DNA of 64,000 bases from Escherichia coli (lineage in GTDB: Bacteria; Pseudomonadota; Gammaproteobacteria; Enterobacterales; Enterobacteriaceae): assembly GCF_044647545.1 (NCBI RefSeq), contig NZ_CP172818.1; one strand, written 5' to 3'. The notes beneath the pieces were generated by a model that was not told where the DNA came from, did no database searches, and saw only the letters and a program-made list of their open reading frames with translations. The position numbers and the translations under genes were made by a program. Shown here one piece after another: positions 24,810-32,775 of this stretch. The first letter of the stretch is position 1; each line of letters begins with the position of its first letter.

Positions 24810-25898
24810 ATGAATAACCGGGAGAAGGAGATCCTTGCAATATTAAGGCGTAACCCGCTGATTCAGCAGAACGAAATTGCGGATATGCTGCAAATCAGCC
24901 GTTCGCGTGTTGCAGCGCATATTATGGATTTAATGCGCAAAGGACGGATTAAAGGCAAAGGTTACATTCTCACCGAGCAGGAATACTGCGTAGTGGTGGG
25001 GACAATCAATATGGATATTCGCGGGATGGCGGATATCCGTTACCCGCAAGCGGCTTCTCATCCCGGTACCATTCATTGCTCGGCAGGCGGCGTTGGACGC
25101 AATATCGCCCACAATCTGGCGCTGTTAGGCCGCGACGTTCATTTGCTTTCAGTGATTGGCGATGACTTTTATGGCGAAATGCTCCTGGAAGAAACGCGCC
25201 GCGCCGGCGTGAATGTCTCCGGCTGCGTTCGTTTACATGGTCAAAGCACATCGACGTATCTGGCAATTGCCAATCGAGACGATCAAACCGTGCTGGCGAT
25301 TAACGATACCCATCTGCTGGATCAGTTGACACCGCAACTACTGAACGGGTCGCGCGATTTACTTCGTCATGCGGGCGTGGTACTGGCAGATTGTAACCTG
25401 ACAGCCGAGGCGCTGGAATGGGTCTTTACCCTCGCTGATGAAATCCCGGTGTTTGTCGATACCGTTTCAGAATTCAAAGCGGGCAAAATCAAACACTGGC
25501 TGGCGCATATTCACACCCTGAAACCCACTTTACCGGAGCTGGAAATTTTATGGGGACAGGCGATCACCAGCGATGCTGACCGTAATGCCGCAGTGAATGC
25601 ATTACATCAGCAAGGTGTTCAGCAACTGTTTGTTTATTTGCCCGATGAGTCAGTTTATTGCAGCGAAAAGGATGGAGAACAATTTTTGCTGACCGCACCA
25701 GCGCATACGACAGTAGACAGTTTTGGTGCTGACGATGGTTTTATGGCGGGTCTGGTATATAGCTTTCTGGAGGGAAACAATTTCCGTGACAGCGCCCGTT
25801 TTGCGATGGCCTGCGCAGCAATTTCACGCGCCAGCGGCAGCTTAAACAACCCTACCCTGTCTGCCGATAACGCGCTTTCATTAGTGCCGATGGTGTAA
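24810..25898 (+). CDS. yeiI: Putative PfkB-family nucleoside/sugar kinase with N-terminal HTH domain, YeiI
   Basis: 362 aa; N-terminal about 50 residues (MNNREKEILAILRRNPLIQQNEIADMLQISRSRVAAHIMDLMRKG) look like a winged helix-turn-helix; remainder aligns by eye with PsuK in this window (GGVGRNIA, LKPN/TLKP motifs). Confidence 0.88.
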   Translation: MNNREKEILAILRRNPLIQQNEIADMLQISRSRVAAHIMDLMRKGRIKGKGYILTEQEYCVVVGTINMDIRGMADIRYPQAASHPGTIHCSAGGVGRNIAHNLALLGRDVHLLSVIGDDFYGEMLLEETRRAGVNVSGCVRLHGQSTSTYLAIANRDDQTVLAINDTHLLDQLTPQLLNGSRDLLRHAGVVLADCNLTAEALEWVFTLADEIPVFVDTVSEFKAGKIKHWLAHIHTLKPTLPELEILWGQAITSDADRNAAVNALHQQGVQQLFVYLPDESVYCSEKDGEQFLLTAPAHTTVDSFGADDGFMAGLVYSFLEGNNFRDSARFAMACAAISRASGSLNNPTLSADNALSLVPMV

Positions 25899-25953: not shown

Positions 25954-27204
25954 CTACGCTAAACCAATAAAGAACCCGGCAATGGTGGCACTCATCAGGT
26001 TAGAAAGTGTCGCCGCCGCCAGCGCGCGTAAACCAAGCTGGGCGATTTCCGGCGCACGGTGTGGCGCAACCGCAGAAAACGCCCCCACCACCACCCCGAT
26101 AGAACCAAAGTTAGCGAAACCGCACAACGCGAAGGAAATAATCGCCACGGTTTTAGCATCCAGAGTGCCAGCTGTTTGCAGATAAGGTGAGAAATTGAGG
26201 TAAGCGACAAATTCATTTATTGCCAGTTTCTGTCCAATCAAACTCCCGGCAAGATTCGCATCACTCCAGTCAACACCCATTACCCACGCCAGTGGGGCCA
26301 GCAGGTAACCTAAAATGGACTCCAGCGAGGCATGTTCAAAACCAAACCAGCCGCCAACGCCGCCGATAATACCGTTAATCAACGCAATTATTGCAACAAA
26401 TGCCATCACCACTGTCGCCACACCTGCGGCGATTTTCAGCCCGGTCATTGCCCCTGTCGCAGCGGCTTCAATAATGCTTTTTGGCGGTGTTTCGGTGAAA
26501 GAGAGGTTATTAAAGGAAACCTGCGAAGATTCCGTGGCCGGACTTAACAGGCGAGCAAATAAGATCCCGCCAGGGATCGCCATTAACGATGCCGCCAGCA
26601 AATATTCCACAGGTACGCCCAGTGCGGCGTAACCAATCATTGTCGAACCAGCAATCGAGGCCATGCCACTACAAATCGCTGTAAATAATTCATTGCGATT
26701 CAGCCGATCGATAAAGGGTTTGACGATTGCCGGAATTTCGTTTTGCCCGAGGAAAATGGTAGTGACCGCGACGAATGACTCGATCTTGCTGATATTTAAT
26801 GCTTTCTGGAAGATACCGCCGAGAATGCGAATTAAGATCCCCATCACACCGATGTAGTAGAGAATACTCACCAGCGCGGTGACGAAGATAATTGCCGGTA
26901 ATACTCTGAAACCAAAGATAAATCCTGCACCATCAAACAGCGTGTCCATTTTCGGCCCGACCAGCGAACCGAAGATAAATGCGCTACCCGCGTCGCTGTA
27001 CGCCATCACTTTATGGACGCCAAAAGCGACTTTTTCAGCGACCCAACGCCCTGGCGGTAACCAAAGCATAATGCCGCCAATCACGACCTGTAACACTAAC
27101 GCCGCGCCAACGGTACGCAGGCTGATCCTCTTCTTGTTTACTGACAGCAAAAATGCAATTGCCAGCAATACCACCATTCCCAGAACACTTCTCATGACAT
27201 CCAT
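25954..27204 (-). CDS. nupX: NupC-family nucleoside permease NupX
   Basis: 416 aa, MDVMRSVLGMVVLLAIAFLLSVNKK; close paralog of PsuT in this window. Confidence 0.93.
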   Translation of the reverse strand: MDVMRSVLGMVVLLAIAFLLSVNKKRISLRTVGAALVLQVVIGGIMLWLPPGRWVAEKVAFGVHKVMAYSDAGSAFIFGSLVGPKMDTLFDGAGFIFGFRVLPAIIFVTALVSILYYIGVMGILIRILGGIFQKALNISKIESFVAVTTIFLGQNEIPAIVKPFIDRLNRNELFTAICSGMASIAGSTMIGYAALGVPVEYLLAASLMAIPGGILFARLLSPATESSQVSFNNLSFTETPPKSIIEAAATGAMTGLKIAAGVATVVMAFVAIIALINGIIGGVGGWFGFEHASLESILGYLLAPLAWVMGVDWSDANLAGSLIGQKLAINEFVAYLNFSPYLQTAGTLDAKTVAIISFALCGFANFGSIGVVVGAFSAVAPHRAPEIAQLGLRALAAATLSNLMSATIAGFFIGLA

Positions 27205-27303
27205 AGTTATTATCTCTTCATGTCATTTTGGGCGACGGCTTTCTGCCCATCAGAAATCGCCGGGCCTGCATCTTGCGATACTGTCCCGGCTTGTTATCAA
27301 CAC

Positions 27304-28245
27304 TTAATGGGTTTTGATGTAGCCGCGCACGCACTCTTCGACTAATCCCCAGAACCAGTCAGTATCAATAGTGATGCCGACTTTGGTATTGGCGGGCTTG
27401 CCAAGAACGCCCAGCTCGTCGCAGACGGTACGCCCATAGCAAGGGCCACTGTTAACATCCACTTCGACGTACATCTCCTGGGTTTTAATGCCATCTGGGT
27501 TAATCAGATAACCGATGCAGGTGGCGTCATGCACCGGGCCGCCAGCCAGGCCGTAGTTTTCGAACTGGGTTTTGAGAGTGAAGTTCATGATGTCGCTGAA
27601 CAGCTCTCCGGCAGGGCCGCCTGCCCTTTCCATTCGTGCAATCACGTCCGGGGTGCAAACGGTCTGGTTGGTGAGATCGAGGCCCATCATTACTAATGGA
27701 ACGCCGGAGGTGAACACCACACGTGCCGCTTCCGGATCAGCAAAGATGTTGAACTCGGCAGATGGCGTGAAGTTGCCAGTACCGTAAGCGCCGCCCATCA
27801 GTACAATTTCACGGATTTTCGGCAGAATTGCGGGTTGCATCCGCATTGCCACCGCGATGTTTGAAAGCGGACCAACCGGCACCAGAGTGATATCGCCATC
27901 GCTTGCCATCAGGGTATCGATGATATATTTCACCGCATGGGTGTTTTCTGCCTGACGAGTCAGCGGTTCGAATACCGGACCATCCAGCCCGGTTTCACCG
28001 TGAATATTATCGGCAACGATTTGTTGACGCATAATGGGTTGCGACATCCCCGCATAAACCGGAACATTAATCTCCAGTTTCTGGCAAACATTCAGGCCAT
28101 TAATTAATGTTTTATCGAGGGTTTGATTCCCCGCCACAATAGTGATACCTAATAAATCAATCGCCGGATGTTTCGCTGCCATCATCATTGCAATAGCATC
28201 ATCATGACCCGGATCACAATCCAGAATAATTTTTCTTTTTTCCAT
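27304..28245 (-). CDS. rihB: Pyrimidine-specific ribonucleoside hydrolase RihB
   Basis: 313 aa, [23 protein letters not shown] (DXDXXXDD nucleoside hydrolase motif). Confidence 0.94.
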
Positions 28246-28413
28246 TGTTTATTTCCTCTGTTTCCAGTTGCGTTATTTTTTCTACAGCAAAGAAAATTCG
28301 ACCGGGCCGATGATTGAATCTTAACAACAGCGTACGTATGCTAAATATGAGAAATCTCATAGCGGATAAACATCGTGAAAGAAATCCACAATAATGATCT
28401 TAAGCAGCAATTG

Positions 28414-29073
28414 ATGAGTGAATCCGCGTTTAAGGATTGCTTTTCAACGGATGTTTCAGCCGATACGCGGCTGTTTCATTTTTTAGCGCGTGACTACATA
28501 GTGCAGGAAGGGCAACAGCCGTCCTGGCTGTTTTACCTGACGCGAGGCCGCGCCAGGCTTTACGCCACGCTAGCTAATGGTCGCGTGTCGCTGATCGATT
28601 TCTTTGCCGCGCCCTGTTTTATTGGTGAGATTGAGTTAATCGATAAAGACCATGAACCGCGTGCGGTACAGGCTATTGAAGAGTGTTGGTGCCTTGCGCT
28701 CCCTATGAAACATTACCGTCCGCTGTTATTAAACGACACGCTATTTTTACGAAAACTTTGCGTCACCTTAAGTCATAAAAATTATCGTAATATTGTTTCT
28801 TTAACTCAGAATCAATCATTTCCGTTAGTGAATCGCCTGGCAGCATTTATATTACTCTCGCAGGAAGGTGATCTTTATCACGAAAAACATACCCAGGCGG
28901 CAGAGTATTTAGGTGTTACTTATCGTCACTTGCTATATGTGATCGCTCAACTCATTCACGACGGTTTATTAATTAAAAGTAAGAAAGGGTATTTAATTAA
29001 AAACAGAAAGCAGTTGTCAGGACTGGCGCTGGAGATGGACCCGGAGAATAAATTCTCCGGGATGATGCAGTAA
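28414..29073 (+). CDS. yeiL: CRP/FNR-family transcriptional regulator YeiL
   Basis: Track ORF 28375..29073 trimmed to [12 protein letters not shown] (219 aa); C-terminal HTH. Confidence 0.85.
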
Positions 29074-29097
29074 AAATTAATCTGCAATAGCGCGATT

Positions 29098-29133
29098 GCC
29101 GGATGCAACACTTAATAAGCGCGTACATCCGGC
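29098..29133. repeat. REP-like palindromic element
   Basis: GCCGGATGCAACACTTAATAAGCGCGTACATCCGGC between convergent yeiL and psuT; 8-bp GCCGGATG/CATCCGGC arms. Confidence 0.55.
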
Positions 29134-29141
29134 AATGAAAC

Positions 29142-30392
29142 TCAAGCTAAACCAATAAAGAACCCGGCAATGGTCGCGCTCATCAGGTTGGAAAGCGTTG
29201 CTGCTGCCAGCGCCCGTAAACCAAGCTGAGCGATTTCCGGTGCGCGTTTTGGCGAAATAGCCGAAAATGCCCCAACGACAACACCGATAGAACCAAAGTT
29301 AGCAAAACCACAAAGCGCAAAGGAGATAATCGCAATGGTTTTCACTTCCAGCGTGCCGCCCGTTTGCAGGTATGGGGAGAAACTCAGGTAAGCGACGAAT
29401 TCGTTAATCGCCAGTTTCTGCCCAATCAGGCTACCCGCAAGATTGGCATCACTCCAGTCCACACCCATGATCCACGCCAGCGGTGCCAGCACATAGCCGA
29501 AAATACTTTCCAGAGAGGCATTGGCGAAACCAAACCAGCCGCCGATTCCGCCGATAATGCCGTTGATCAGCGCAATAATTGCGACAAACGCCATTACTAC
29601 CGTTGCTACACCAGCGGCGATTTTCAGCCCGGTCATCGCACCGCTCGCCGCTGCTTCGATAAAGCTTTTTGGCGGCGTTTCGCTGAACGATAAATTTTCA
29701 AATGTGACCTGCGAAGGCTCGGTTGCCGGGCTAAGAATACGTGCAAACAAAATCCCGCCAGGGATCGCCATCAGCGATGCCGCTAACAGGTAGTCAATTG
29801 GTACGCCCATTCCGGCATAACCGATCATCATCGAACCCGCAATGGACGCCATCCCGCTACAAATTGCAGTAAACAACTCGTTGCGATTCATGCGATCGAT
29901 AAACGGTTTAACGATCGCAGGGATCTCATTTTGCCCGAGGAAAATAGTGGTAACCGCAACAAAAGATTCGATTTTGCTGATGTTGAGAGCTTTCTGAAAA
30001 ATACTGCCAAGAATGCGGATTAGCAGCCCCATCACGCCAATGTAGTACAGCAGACTGATGAGCGCAGTAACGAAAATAATCGCCGGAAGTACGCGAAAGG
30101 CGAAGATAAAACCCGCACCGTCAAACAAGACATCCATTTTCGGCCCAACCAGCGAACCAAAAATGAAGGCGCTACCGGCATCACTGTAAGACATCACTTT
30201 ATGAACGCCTAATGCCGCCAGTTCAACTGCCCATTTTCCCGGTGGGAAGTAGAGCATGATGCCACCAATAGCGATTTGCAGCAGCAGCGCGGCTCCAACC
30301 GTGCGTAAACTGATGCTCTTTTTATTCACTGATAACAGAAATGCTATTACCAGTAACACCACCATCCCCACAACACTTCTCATTATATCCAT
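29142..30392 (-). CDS. psuT: NupC-family pseudouridine/nucleoside transporter PsuT (YeiM)
   Basis: 416 aa, MDIMRSVVGMVVLLVIAFLLSVNKK; near-identical in length and sequence to NupX. Confidence 0.92.
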   Translation of the reverse strand: MDIMRSVVGMVVLLVIAFLLSVNKKSISLRTVGAALLLQIAIGGIMLYFPPGKWAVELAALGVHKVMSYSDAGSAFIFGSLVGPKMDVLFDGAGFIFAFRVLPAIIFVTALISLLYYIGVMGLLIRILGSIFQKALNISKIESFVAVTTIFLGQNEIPAIVKPFIDRMNRNELFTAICSGMASIAGSMMIGYAGMGVPIDYLLAASLMAIPGGILFARILSPATEPSQVTFENLSFSETPPKSFIEAAASGAMTGLKIAAGVATVVMAFVAIIALINGIIGGIGGWFGFANASLESIFGYVLAPLAWIMGVDWSDANLAGSLIGQKLAINEFVAYLSFSPYLQTGGTLEVKTIAIISFALCGFANFGSIGVVVGAFSAISPKRAPEIAQLGLRALAAATLSNLMSATIAGFFIGLA

Positions 30393-30484
30393 AATGATTT
30401 CCCCTTCATACCAGTAAACCCGACGTCAGCGCCAGGTTCTGGTATGTATGATCATACGGGCGACGGCTTTCTGCCCGTCAGAAA

Positions 30485-31423
30485 TTAACCCGCGAGACGC
30501 TGGTATTCTTTGGCAATTTCGCTCGCCAGAATGGCGTTGTTGAACACCAGTTGGATGTTGGATTTCAGACTGTCACCGCCGGTCAGTTCTGCAACACGAG
30601 CCAGTAGGAACGGTGTACTTTCTTTACCAATAACGCCCTGCTCTTCGGCTTCGGCGACGGCCTGATCTATGGCTGCATTAATTGACTCCTCCGCCATCGC
30701 AAACTGCTCCGGGATCGGATTCGCCACTACCAGACCACCGTTCAAACCGGTTTGCCATTTCACTGCCATTGCACGAGCGATTTCTGTGGCACTATCAAGG
30801 CGAATGCTGACCTCAAACGGGCTGGTACGGCAGAAAAACGCAGGCAGCGCTTTTGTCTGATAGCCAATTAACGGCACACCGAAGGTTTCTAAATATTCTG
30901 TTGTTAATCCTAAATCGAGAATGGATTTTGCACCGGCACAAACAACGGTGACATTAGTATTTGCCAGTTCTTGCAAATCGGCAGAAATATCGAAGGTATG
31001 TTCCGCCCCGCGATGCACACCACCAATTCCCCCGGTGGCAAATACTTTAATTCCGGCAAGCGCCGCAATAATCATCGTTGAAGCCACAGTGGTTGCGCCA
31101 TTTTTTCCGGCGGCAACAACAAAAGGTAAATCGCGACGACTAACTTTGGTCACGTTATGCCCTTCGCGACCCAGCAATTCAATTTCTTCTTTGCTTAAAC
31201 CCACTTTCATCACGCCGCCAATAATGGCGATAGTGGCAGGTACAGCGCCCTGTTTACGAATAGTTTCTTCAACTTCAATTGCGGTCTGGGCATTTTGTGG
31301 GAACGGCATCCCATGAGAAATAATGGTCGATTCCAGCGCCACAACCGGTTTTTTGTTTTTTAAAGCGTCCTGCACTTCCGGGGAAATTTGTAATAATTCA
31401 GGGGAAATTTTTAATTCAGACAT
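30485..31423 (-). CDS. psuG: Pseudouridine-5'-phosphate glycosidase PsuG (YeiN)
   Basis: 312 aa, MSELKISPELLQISPEVQDALKNKKPVVALESTIISHGMPFPQN. Confidence 0.94.
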   Translation of the reverse strand: MSELKISPELLQISPEVQDALKNKKPVVALESTIISHGMPFPQNAQTAIEVEETIRKQGAVPATIAIIGGVMKVGLSKEEIELLGREGHNVTKVSRRDLPFVVAAGKNGATTVASTMIIAALAGIKVFATGGIGGVHRGAEHTFDISADLQELANTNVTVVCAGAKSILDLGLTTEYLETFGVPLIGYQTKALPAFFCRTSPFEVSIRLDSATEIARAMAVKWQTGLNGGLVVANPIPEQFAMAEESINAAIDQAVAEAEEQGVIGKESTPFLLARVAELTGGDSLKSNIQLVFNNAILASEIAKEYQRLAG

Positions 31424-32352
31424 TCTGCGTTCTCCACTAACGATATAACGTTGGCAATCGATAAATCGGGGTTATTGGTGTATTCACAGGAGAGCGCCAT
31501 TGACGAACATCCCTGTGCGAAACGAACGGATTCGGCAAACGGCATTCCGTCTACCCAACACGAAGCAAGTCCCGCCATCATGGCATCGCCCGCTCCGGTA
31601 ACATTAATAACATTGGTTTTGATCGGCGCAGACCAGCCACTTTCACCGCTGATATCGCTGTAATAAACGCCATCGCCGCCCATGCTCAATACCAGTCGGT
31701 TCAGCCCATGTTGATGGAACCAGGCAGCAACTTTTGCCACATCTTCACGCCCTGACAGCGCAATCCCACTCAGGGTTTCCGCTTCAAGGCGGTTTGGCTT
31801 GAGAGTGTGGATTTGATTTAGACGGTCGCGCACTTTGACACATTTCCACGCAGAAACCGGATCGACAAATACGGGTACGTTGGCGGCATTATCCAGAATC
31901 CATGCCAGTGCCTCTTCACTGATATTACAGTCCGCGACAATGACCTTTGCCCTCTGAATAAATTCACGATGCTGTGCGAGATATTCAGCTGTAATAGCGT
32001 TGCTAATATTCATGTCATTTATAGCAACTAGCATTTCACCGGTATTATCGAGTAATGATAAATAGCTCGACGTATTTTCTCCCGGCACAATCAGGCATTT
32101 ATCGACATAAACACCAGATTGATTGGTTTGCGTTAGCAACGATTGACCATAAAAATCACTGCCTACTGCGCTCAGTAGCCAGGCTTTATTCCCCAGCAAC
32201 GCCAGGTTTTGTGCAATATTGCGCCCTACTCCACCAGGCGTAAACTTTATTTTACCTGGATTTGAATCCGCATAATTTAATGATTCATGTGAATATCCGG
32301 CGACATCAATATTCGCCGAACCTATAATTACGACATAATCCTTTTCGCGCAT
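31411..32352 (-). CDS. psuK: Pseudouridine kinase PsuK (YeiC), PfkB family
   Basis: 313 aa, MREKDYVVIIGSANIDVAG; 13-nt overlap with psuG. Confidence 0.93.
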   Translation of the reverse strand: MREKDYVVIIGSANIDVAGYSHESLNYADSNPGKIKFTPGGVGRNIAQNLALLGNKAWLLSAVGSDFYGQSLLTQTNQSGVYVDKCLIVPGENTSSYLSLLDNTGEMLVAINDMNISNAITAEYLAQHREFIQRAKVIVADCNISEEALAWILDNAANVPVFVDPVSAWKCVKVRDRLNQIHTLKPNRLEAETLSGIALSGREDVAKVAAWFHQHGLNRLVLSMGGDGVYYSDISGESGWSAPIKTNVINVTGAGDAMMAGLASCWVDGMPFAESVRFAQGCSSMALSCEYTNNPDLSIANVISLVENAECLN

Positions 32353-32592: not shown

Positions 32593-32618
32593 AAAAAAGG
32601 GCAGAAATTAATCTGCCC
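32593..32618 (-). terminator. Rho-independent terminator downstream of fruA
   Basis: Hairpin GGGCAGA-AATTAA-TCTGCCC at 32599-32618 followed on the minus strand by a six-U run; a second hairpin without a U-tract at about 32739-32765 lies closer to the fruA stop. Confidence 0.65.
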
Positions 32619-32775
32619 TTGAGGAAATAACCTTAGTGTTTGATGAAAGTTTCAGGTTTCCACTAAAAGATAAAACCATTTAAATTCATAAAATTACATT
32701 CACAAACCGGTCATTCTCTTTGCGCGCATCAAATGTTCCAGGGCAGGAAATTTCTGCCCTGGAACACACCTTTTA

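Follow-up and report, generated by a model that had tools for sequence, protein, structure and literature searches.

In Escherichia coli, the genes for the paralogous transporters NupX and PsuT lie downstream of enzyme genes in two separate operons, and the spacer in front of each contains the same short sequence with a single difference. This raises the question of why these two spacers share it, and whether it acts as DNA or as RNA. Here the question is examined in a 64-kb stretch of E. coli contig NZ_CP172818.1, referred to below as the window, in which nupX (25954-27204) follows rihB and psuT (29142-30392, with its AUG at 30390-30392) follows psuG, all on the minus strand. Comparison with orthologous loci shows that the shared sequence belongs to an RNA stem-loop of the sense (operon) strand, hereafter hairpin 1, whose base pairs are held by compensatory changes. 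A pattern search of the window recovered the 28-mer GGGCGACGGCTTTCTGCCCRTCAGAAAT at both places where it had been reported, 27230-27257 (nupX copy) and 30458-30485 (psuT copy), with 27 of 28 positions identical between the copies; these are its only two sites even when three mismatches are tolerated, and no match arose in 100 dinucleotide-preserving shuffles. On the transcribed strand the motif reads AUUUCUGAYGGGCAGAAAGCCGUCGCCC. The psuT copy consists of a 5' flank, AUUUCUG, followed by hairpin 1 minus the last two bases of its 3' arm, and the first A of the motif is the final base of the psuG UAA stop codon. The paralogs share 88% identity at the protein level and 78.7% at the DNA level, with only 52-55% identity at third codon positions, and just 0.74% of 28-nucleotide (nt) windows within the two coding sequences attain 27/28 identity; by our own calculation, such identity at a near-neutral rate has a probability of about 1e-6 (P). 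The original prediction described the remaining spacer sequence as divergent, but it is not wholly so, as the ~22 nt before each ATG align as homologous between the paralogs.

The fold that is conserved among orthologs can be drawn in both copies on the minus strand. In the psuT spacer, hairpin 1 is ACGGGC-AGAAAGCCGUC-GCCCGU at 30456-30478, with a 6-bp stem (30473-30478 paired with 30456-30461) and an 11-nt loop (30462-30472), beginning 6 nt past the psuG stop codon. In the nupX spacer, it is UGGGC-AGAAAGCCGUC-GCCCA at 27229-27249, with a 5-bp stem (27245-27249 paired with 27229-27233) and again an 11-nt loop (27234-27244); its sixth pair is an A-A mismatch in the window allele and an A-U pair in another E. 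coli allele (L001). Each hairpin is part of the minimum-free-energy fold of its spacer, and the psuT stem is worth -10.1 kcal/mol. A covariance model built on the orthologs scores the nupX copy at 45.8 bits and the psuT copy at 40.6 bits, the next hit in the window reaching 11.6 bits.

Conservation was assessed in 80 distinct leaders of 130 nt from 10 named genera and from metagenomes, each located behind psuG or rihB. These leaders were retrieved by protein or by the start of the coding sequence, and the motif itself was not used as bait. A protein-guided scan of species-representative genomes supplied Escherichia, E. albertii, three Citrobacter species, Leclercia and Superficieibacter; contigs with close PsuT homologs supplied Buttiauxella, Klebsiella michiganensis, K. 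spallanzanii, Kluyvera, Enterobacter and Entomohabitans; and metagenomes were scanned with a degenerate pattern of the first ten codons of the transporter gene. Hairpin 1 is carried by 78 of the 80 distinct leaders, and those without it form one lineage (L121/L197) whose 5' arm has been remodeled. The motif is thus present in the spacers of related species, whereas its absence there had been named at the outset as the finding that would count against it.

Pairing in the stem was evaluated in 53 distinct orthologous sequences against 500 column shuffles and against slid partner strands, ignoring kinship among the sequences. The conserved stem is 5-6 bp long, AYGGGC/GCCCRU, and encloses a loop that is exactly 11 nt long, [A]G-n-n-w-G-C-s-G-U-[C]; across genera the core reduces to R/Y-Y-R-G-G-C, 11 nt, and G-C-C-Y-R-Y/R. 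Its bases pair in 83.6% of cells, compared with 34-54% when the partner is slid, and none of the 500 shuffles reaches its covariation score. Compensatory double changes occur in three pairs: 9-29 (CG 35, UA 10, UG 5, unpaired 3), 10-28 (GC 47, AU 4, GU 1) and 8-30 (AU 17, GC 13, GU 4), while the three inner pairs are essentially invariant. The resulting natural variants include ACGGGC/GCCCGU in E. coli psuT, AUGGGC/GCCCAU in an E. coli nupX allele and in Buttiauxella, ACAGGC/GCCUGU in Leclercia and in Enterobacter psuT, GCGGGC/GCCCGC in Klebsiella, GACGGGC/GCCCGUC in Enterobacter nupX, and wobble forms such as GUGGGC/GCCCGU. Counted over the whole stem, there are 12 G·U and 4 A·C cells, and over the five core pairs 8 and 1, an excess of G·U that fits an RNA of the operon strand. 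The idea that the motif is a transcribed, intra-operon element under selection is therefore supported by covariation, G·U bias and conservation across genera. An extension of the stem into the loop was also considered: a G2·U10 pair is always possible (GU 24, AU 2), but the pair after it fails in 12 of 26 sequences, and the extension was rejected as weak.

The stem originally drawn for the motif, by contrast, is a different one. It paired GA(U/C)GG with CCGUC to give 5 bp around an 8-nt loop, and it was to be checked for covariation across orthologous spacers. In that check its bases pair in 71% of cells, a value reached by 412 of 500 column shuffles and matched by a +3 slide (72.5%), so it does not rise above the shuffles, and it is the alternative stem that covaries. 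One of its five pairs is disrupted in 34 of the 53 sequences and another in 28, these two being broken in most genera, and a change on both sides is found in only 2 of 265 cells. It had also been proposed that the single difference between the copies turns a C-G pair into a U-G wobble. The differing base is position 9, whose partner at position 29 lies one base beyond the reported 28-mer and is G in the psuT copy (30457) and A in the nupX copy (27229); the difference is in fact a full compensatory change from C-G to U-A. The GAYGG/CCGUC stem can be drawn in both E. coli copies (-8.5 kcal/mol in psuT, -6.7 kcal/mol in nupX) and enters the minimum-free-energy fold of some E. coli psuT alleles, but it is mutually exclusive with the conserved stem, whose stability is greater (-10.1 versus -8.5 kcal/mol in psuT), and we give almost no credence to its being the functional fold.

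Conservation extends to the loop, whose length is always 11 nt and in which U10 (53/53), G9 (52/53), G2 (51/53), G6 (51/53) and C7 (48/53) are nearly fixed. Between pairs of sequences whose third codon positions are 0.49 identical, the 23-nt hairpin retains an identity of 0.74, compared with 0.90 for first and second codon positions. Taken together, these comparisons show purifying selection on hairpin 1 in both paralogs across Escherichia, Citrobacter, Klebsiella, Enterobacter, Leclercia, Kluyvera, Buttiauxella, Superficieibacter and Entomohabitans. Beyond this range the element was not detected: the covariance model gave no hits upstream of 73 more distant CNT-family transporter loci (~50% protein identity), and hairpin 1 is missing both from a Klebsiella sp. 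homolog with 72% identity and from the psuK-psuG-transporter locus of the nearest relative in the 50% cluster (66% protein identity), where the spacer hairpins differ. On account of these absences, hairpin 1 is regarded as an element confined to one Enterobacteriaceae clade. In the relative with 66% identity, a strong hairpin, CCCCCUUUGA...UCAAAGGGGGG (L217, 2390-2500), takes the place of hairpin 1 in a layout that is analogous but not homologous.

Hairpin 1 is not a repetitive extragenic palindromic (REP) sequence, an intrinsic terminator, a member of any Rfam family, a transcription-factor operator or a leader peptide, judged by the features that define each of these classes. REP sequences and bacterial interspersed mosaic elements (BIMEs) occur in hundreds of copies per genome and share the REP consensus, whereas the covariance model has two hits in the 64-kb window. 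In E. coli the 28-mer is present in 5424 of 5426 complete genomes, at a median of two and a maximum of three places per genome (E-value limit 10), and the median of two marks it as a locus-specific element rather than a dispersed repeat. No repeat feature is annotated in the MG1655 spacers; the curated record annotates nothing in either spacer. Rfam 15 has no family overlapping either copy in the window (E-value limit 10) or the leaders of nine orthologous loci (E-value limit 5). The original view that the motif is not a simple intrinsic terminator is borne out by the 11-nt loop, by the lack of a U-tract after either copy, where hairpin 1 is followed by GUAUGAUC or AAAAUGAC, and by a terminator scan that makes no call at hairpin 1. 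A perfect palindrome, GTATGATCATAC, had been noted immediately after the psuT copy at 30446-30457. It is indeed there, but its supposed link to the element does not hold: it lies outside the conserved element and is specific to this strain's allele, the same site being GTACTCATCAAGC in MG1655 and GUACUCAUCAA(A/G)C in MG1655 and most other E. coli. The palindrome is found in 1 of 34 distinct leaders with a second hairpin (described below), namely that of the window, and it is probably irrelevant to the element.

Alignment of the orthologous leaders shows hairpin 1 to be the first module of a larger leader, inherited with the transporter gene when a duplication gave rise to nupX and psuT. The ancestral leader of ~45-100 nt, as reconstructed from these sequences, consists of hairpin 1, an A/C-rich single-stranded tail with AUCAGAC, a second hairpin (hairpin 2), the Shine-Dalgarno sequence and the AUG. 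In other genera the consensus of the tail is AUCA(G/A)AC, and the AUG is preceded by AUCAUU. Hairpin 2 has the consensus AAACCUGGCG-nnnn-CGCCGGGUUU, with an A-tract before it and a short U run after it. In the psuT leader of the window it is CAUACCAGAACCUGGCG-cuga-CGUCGGGUUUACUGGUAUG at 30407-30446 on the minus strand, with the core CCUGGCG-cuga-CGUCGGG (30419-30425 and 30430-30436), an A-tract on the 5' side and UUUACUGG on the 3' side. It is present in the minimum-free-energy fold (z-score -3.5) and in the RNAalifold consensus, in which hairpins 1 and 2 fold independently, and it ends 0-3 nt before the Shine-Dalgarno sequence. Across 26 leaders, hairpin 2 pairs in 90.8% of cells; its sequence is conserved, and double changes were not seen. 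The simple terminator scan does not call hairpin 2, as it has fewer than five T in eight bases, but it resembles a weak intrinsic terminator and could act as a leaky internal attenuator ahead of the psuT ribosome-binding site.

The two modules have had different fates in the two paralogs. Hairpin 2 is kept in nearly all psuT-type leaders, although an unrelated hairpin stands in its place in one lineage (L105). Most nupX-type leaders, including that of E. coli, have lost hairpin 2 by deletion but retained hairpin 1; the losses were independent in nupX lineages, and K. spallanzanii nupX has both hairpins. The psuT ribosome-binding region, AAGGGGAAAUCAUU, lies directly 5' of the AUG at 30393-30406 on the minus strand, as identified by alignment and orthologous leaders, and the homologous region before nupX, AAGAGAUAAUAACU, aligns with it at 27205-27218, also on the minus strand. 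Between rihB and hairpin 1 the window carries a further minus-strand hairpin, GCCGGG...CCCGGC followed by GAUUUCUGAU (27259-27290), which is outside the shared leader; it is two-tiered and may serve as a 3' stabilizer of rihB or as a weak terminator. In other genera, unrelated lineage-specific hairpins follow rihB, likewise upstream of hairpin 1.

What, then, might hairpin 1 do? Our preferred reading, to which we grant not quite an even chance, is that it is a sequence-specifically recognized cis-acting operator that tunes the distal transporter cistron. The constancy of four loop-proximal pairs, of five loop bases, of the loop length and of the tail goes far beyond the needs of a structural block, and from this we infer a recognized operator. 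Its partner would be a general RNA-binding protein, an RNase, or the hairpin's own tail. By acting through processing or stability of the mRNA, or through read-through and translation downstream, hairpin 1 would set expression of the distal membrane-protein cistron relative to that of the upstream enzyme genes, and in the ancestral leader it would have worked beside the leaky, terminator-like hairpin 2, each folding on its own.

Another possible role would be passive, with no specific partner: the hairpin could block 3'-to-5' exonucleases and so protect the psuKG or rihB message once the spacer has been cleaved, shield a processed transporter message at its 5' end, or insulate the cistrons from each other. 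The REP sequences of malEFG and the hairpins of the pap operon are the classical arrangement of this kind for differential expression within operons. Hairpin 1 is likewise G·C-rich and located between cistrons, the psuT form lying 4-9 nt after the psuG stop, and roughly the same place is taken by unrelated hairpins behind rihB in other genera and behind psuG in the relative with 66% identity. We nevertheless hold the passive role to be rather unlikely, as a barrier needs neither a fixed 11-nt loop nor fixed loop bases nor four invariant pairs. Moreover, it is the downstream gene, not the upstream one, with which hairpin 1 has been inherited. Although rihB in the rihB-nupX form already has a different hairpin behind it, hairpin 1 persists beside the transporter gene, and this retention favors the operator over the barrier. 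It seems improbable that hairpin 1 instead forms an H-type pseudoknot, possibly a small ligand-sensing aptamer, in which S-G-U-C, the final four bases of the loop, pairs with R-A-C-N of the conserved AUCAGAC tail, located 7-10 nt past the stem, with an A-rich strand running along the stem and consequences for hairpin 2 or the ribosome-binding region. Such a structure would account for the fixed loop length, for the matching of G9-U10 with A-C in the tail, for the A-rich linker and for the invariant G-C pairs, and matching loop and tail variants exist (GGUC/GACC, UGUC/GACA, GGUU/AACC and GGUU/AAUC). Across 26 leaders this helix pairs in 74% of cells compared with 8-43% when slid, a suggestive result; its seven cells with both sides changed are reached by 1 of 500 shuffles, and its covariation score by 5 of 500. 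The events are few, however, and the GACC tail derives from a single deletion junction; moreover, in the tool's own trials comparable shuffle counts appear in 5-25% of unstructured alignments of related sequences. In the window, the nupX tail GACA (27221-27224, minus strand) is the candidate 3' strand of this helix (P2) and could form 3 bp with the loop GUC at 27234-27236, but E. coli psuT and Kluyvera nupX allow only 2 bp, and Citrobacter 3 bp. No aptamer family in Rfam matches, and the element has a very narrow distribution. The specific proposal of a compact pseudoknot (6-bp stem, 7-nt loop 1, helix 2 of 3-4 bp and an A-rich strand 3 of 7-10 nt) that, as a minimal aptamer or a protein-independent switch, responds to a pyrimidine base or nucleoside (pseudouridine or uridine, for example) and gates hairpin 2 or the ribosome-binding site appears decidedly improbable; if true, it would represent a new, very small class of riboswitch in E. 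coli operons.

As an inverted repeat, GGGC-N11-GCCC, or in E. coli TTTCTG-N5-CAGAAA, the motif could be an operator in double-stranded DNA bound by a transcription factor such as YeiL, a CRP/FNR-family regulator whose gene (28375-29073, plus strand) lies between the two operons. This is very unlikely, given that the half-sites covary and differ even between the copies in one genome (C-G versus U-A), that the wobbles are mostly G·U on the sense strand, that the site lies between cistrons with no mapped promoter, that TTTCTG/CAGAAA is not conserved, and that hairpin 1 is present in psuKGT loci without yeiL nearby. The motif also stands at the 5' edge of the homology between the paralogous regions, and in some E. 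coli strains the nupX copy is degenerating (GCC-AAA, AGGGGC), with nupX a pseudogene in at least one, as might be expected of a functionless relic of the duplication or of a recent gene conversion. Against this, both paralogs conserve the motif in ten genera whose third codon positions are almost saturated with changes, and compensatory changes are present, which makes neutrality extremely unlikely.

Several observations weigh against hairpin 1 as a recognized operator. Its distance from the upstream stop codon varies (4-9 nt after psuG, 17-90 nt after rihB), as does that to the AUG (26-69 nt), which argues against a direct steric effect on ribosome binding. No partner gene co-occurs with hairpin 1 across the loci compared: yeiL goes only with the rihB-nupX form, and the Buttiauxella loci lack yeiI. 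All the sequences come from one narrow protein cluster, at or above ~86% identity, and the invariance could partly reflect shared ancestry. In addition, the literature searched holds no experiment on the effect of hairpin 1 on expression and no reporter or RNA-end data for these spacers, and published data sets, in which these operons are poorly expressed, record no 5' or 3' ends near the hairpins.

Published maps nevertheless bear on the surroundings of the two hairpins. Neither a scan of the window nor the published K-12 map places a promoter-like site or a mapped start beside them, and the K-12 table lists no transcription start at either hairpin (PMC7815308 supplement). The only nearby start on the operon strand is upstream of psuK, in the fruA-psuK spacer (MG1655 2259533, minus strand), and another nearby mapped start lies inside yeiL (PMC7815308). 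Hfq-CLASH (crosslinking, ligation and sequencing of hybrids) recovered CpxQ-psuT, CpxQ-nupX and CyaR-nupX chimeras, all inside the coding sequences and not in the leader (PMC7213987 supplements), which suggests that both transporters are under small RNA control separate from the leader hairpin. The psuT site of these chimeras covers codons ~7-23, approximately 30320-30372 in the window. A search of tables from RNA interaction by ligation and sequencing (RIL-seq) under nitrogen starvation gave nothing.

Among known systems, hairpin 1 is most like, by analogy, a conserved cis-acting leader hairpin, and in its presumed action it is closest to the intercistronic stem-loops that provide differential expression within operons. 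Like the malE-malF REP, pap and puf hairpins, it is a stable hairpin without a U-tract in a spacer between enzyme and membrane-protein genes, and the expected effect would likewise be on the relative abundance of transcript segments. It differs from REP hairpins in having two copies per genome, no REP consensus and no dispersal, and from intercistronic stem-loops in general in that neither its loop length nor its loop bases nor four of its stem pairs change between genera and in that it travels with the downstream gene. Taken with hairpin 2, it also recalls internal attenuators. Compared with attenuators based on intrinsic terminators, hairpin 2 is similar, with a G·C stem of 7-10 bp, an A-tract and UUU(U) before the ribosome-binding site, whereas hairpin 1 differs in its 11-nt loop and lack of a U run, and no conserved antiterminator pairing connects the two hairpins. 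The layout of preQ1-I-type aptamers, with ~5-6 stem pairs, ~11 loop nucleotides and an A-rich 3' tail able to pair through its end with the 3' part of the loop, is similar to hairpin 1 in scale and arrangement, and both stand upstream of the terminator or ribosome-binding site of a transporter gene; the differences are the lack of an Rfam match, a second helix that is no more than suggestive and in E. coli weak, the small number of conserved unpaired bases and the restriction to one Enterobacteriaceae clade. Finally, lambda boxB, the MS2 operator and the histone mRNA stem-loop share with hairpin 1 the invariant loop-proximal pairs, the fixed loop length and bases and a conserved single-stranded flank, but the loop of hairpin 1 is larger (11 nt) and no partner is encoded nearby.

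The leader is unannotated in MG1655, absent from Rfam and not mentioned in the literature searched, in the most closely examined of all bacteria. Retention of the hairpin in two paralogous operons through the history of Escherichia, Klebsiella and Enterobacter suggests post-transcriptional control of nucleoside and pseudouridine uptake, and we know of no described regulation of uptake by these transporters. With only 23 nt and a set of natural compensatory variants, hairpin 1 is also a small and defined target for studying how a distal cistron is tuned.

Several further candidate structures were tried and rejected. A pseudoknot helix formed by TTTCTG and CAGAAA on the 5' side, noticed in E. 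coli and Superficieibacter, reaches 62% paired cells compared with 55% at a slide of -2, and Buttiauxella, Kluyvera, Klebsiella and Leclercia lack it. Ribosome-coupled antitermination, in which the 3' arm of hairpin 1 would pair with the 5' arm of hairpin 2 while a ribosome halted at the psuG stop codon masks the 5' arm of hairpin 1, was also discarded: with the 5' arm of hairpin 1 forced to be single-stranded, hairpin 2 persists in 35 of 35 psuT-type leaders, and no conserved alternative helix forms. A small open reading frame running through the hairpin (MGRKPSP...) has ATG, ACG, GTG, TCG or ACA at its would-be start, and its frame is not conserved; loop variation falls at first and second codon positions, contrary to what is expected of a leader peptide. 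The E. coli sequence AGCCGTCGCCCG matches the RfaH ops element GGCGGTAGNNTG by eye at 7 of 12 positions, and ops-like stretches occur in only two lineages (GCGGTAGC in L146 and GCAGTAGC, 7/8, in Kluyvera); this resemblance, and another to the tRNA D-arm, were judged to be due to chance. Near the psuT start, an upstream open reading frame (uORF), AUG AAG GGG AAA UCA UUA UGG AUA UAA (30383-30409, minus strand), overlaps the fourth psuT codon through UAAUG. Coupling of this uORF, AUGAAGGGG...UAAUG, to Met4 of psuT was rejected, since the arrangement is limited to Escherichia and most Citrobacter, with a frame shift in C. youngae, and does not occur in Klebsiella or Leclercia.

The other genes around the two hairpins, assigned like nupX, psuT and yeiL from the list of open reading frames and comparison with annotated E. 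coli genomes, are rihB (27304-28245), psuG (30485-31423) and psuK (31411-32352), all on the minus strand. In some E. coli strains nupX and its neighbors are decaying, and the nupX hairpin has broken alleles there (GCC-AAA, AGGGGC). One strain retains a 66-nt nupX remnant behind an intact leader (L088, 6886-6951), and in another the insertion sequence IS1 stands in place of psuG, psuT, yeiL and the 5' part of rihB (L090, 2000-3554). The fruA-psuK region has two terminator-like palindromes, one in the spacer (32597-32620, minus strand) and one at the 3' end of fruA (32734-32766, plus strand), which contain GGGCAGA...TCTGCCC as in the hairpin motif; the hairpin model scores them at only 10.2 and 7.7 bits, and the likeness is probably due to chance. 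On the other side of nupX, yeiI (24810-25898, plus strand; also in L082, L083 and L087) encodes a sugar kinase of the PfkB family that has a winged-helix domain at its N terminus. Many loci of either type carry this paralog of the psuK kinase in convergent orientation to the transporter gene, but Buttiauxella lacks it.

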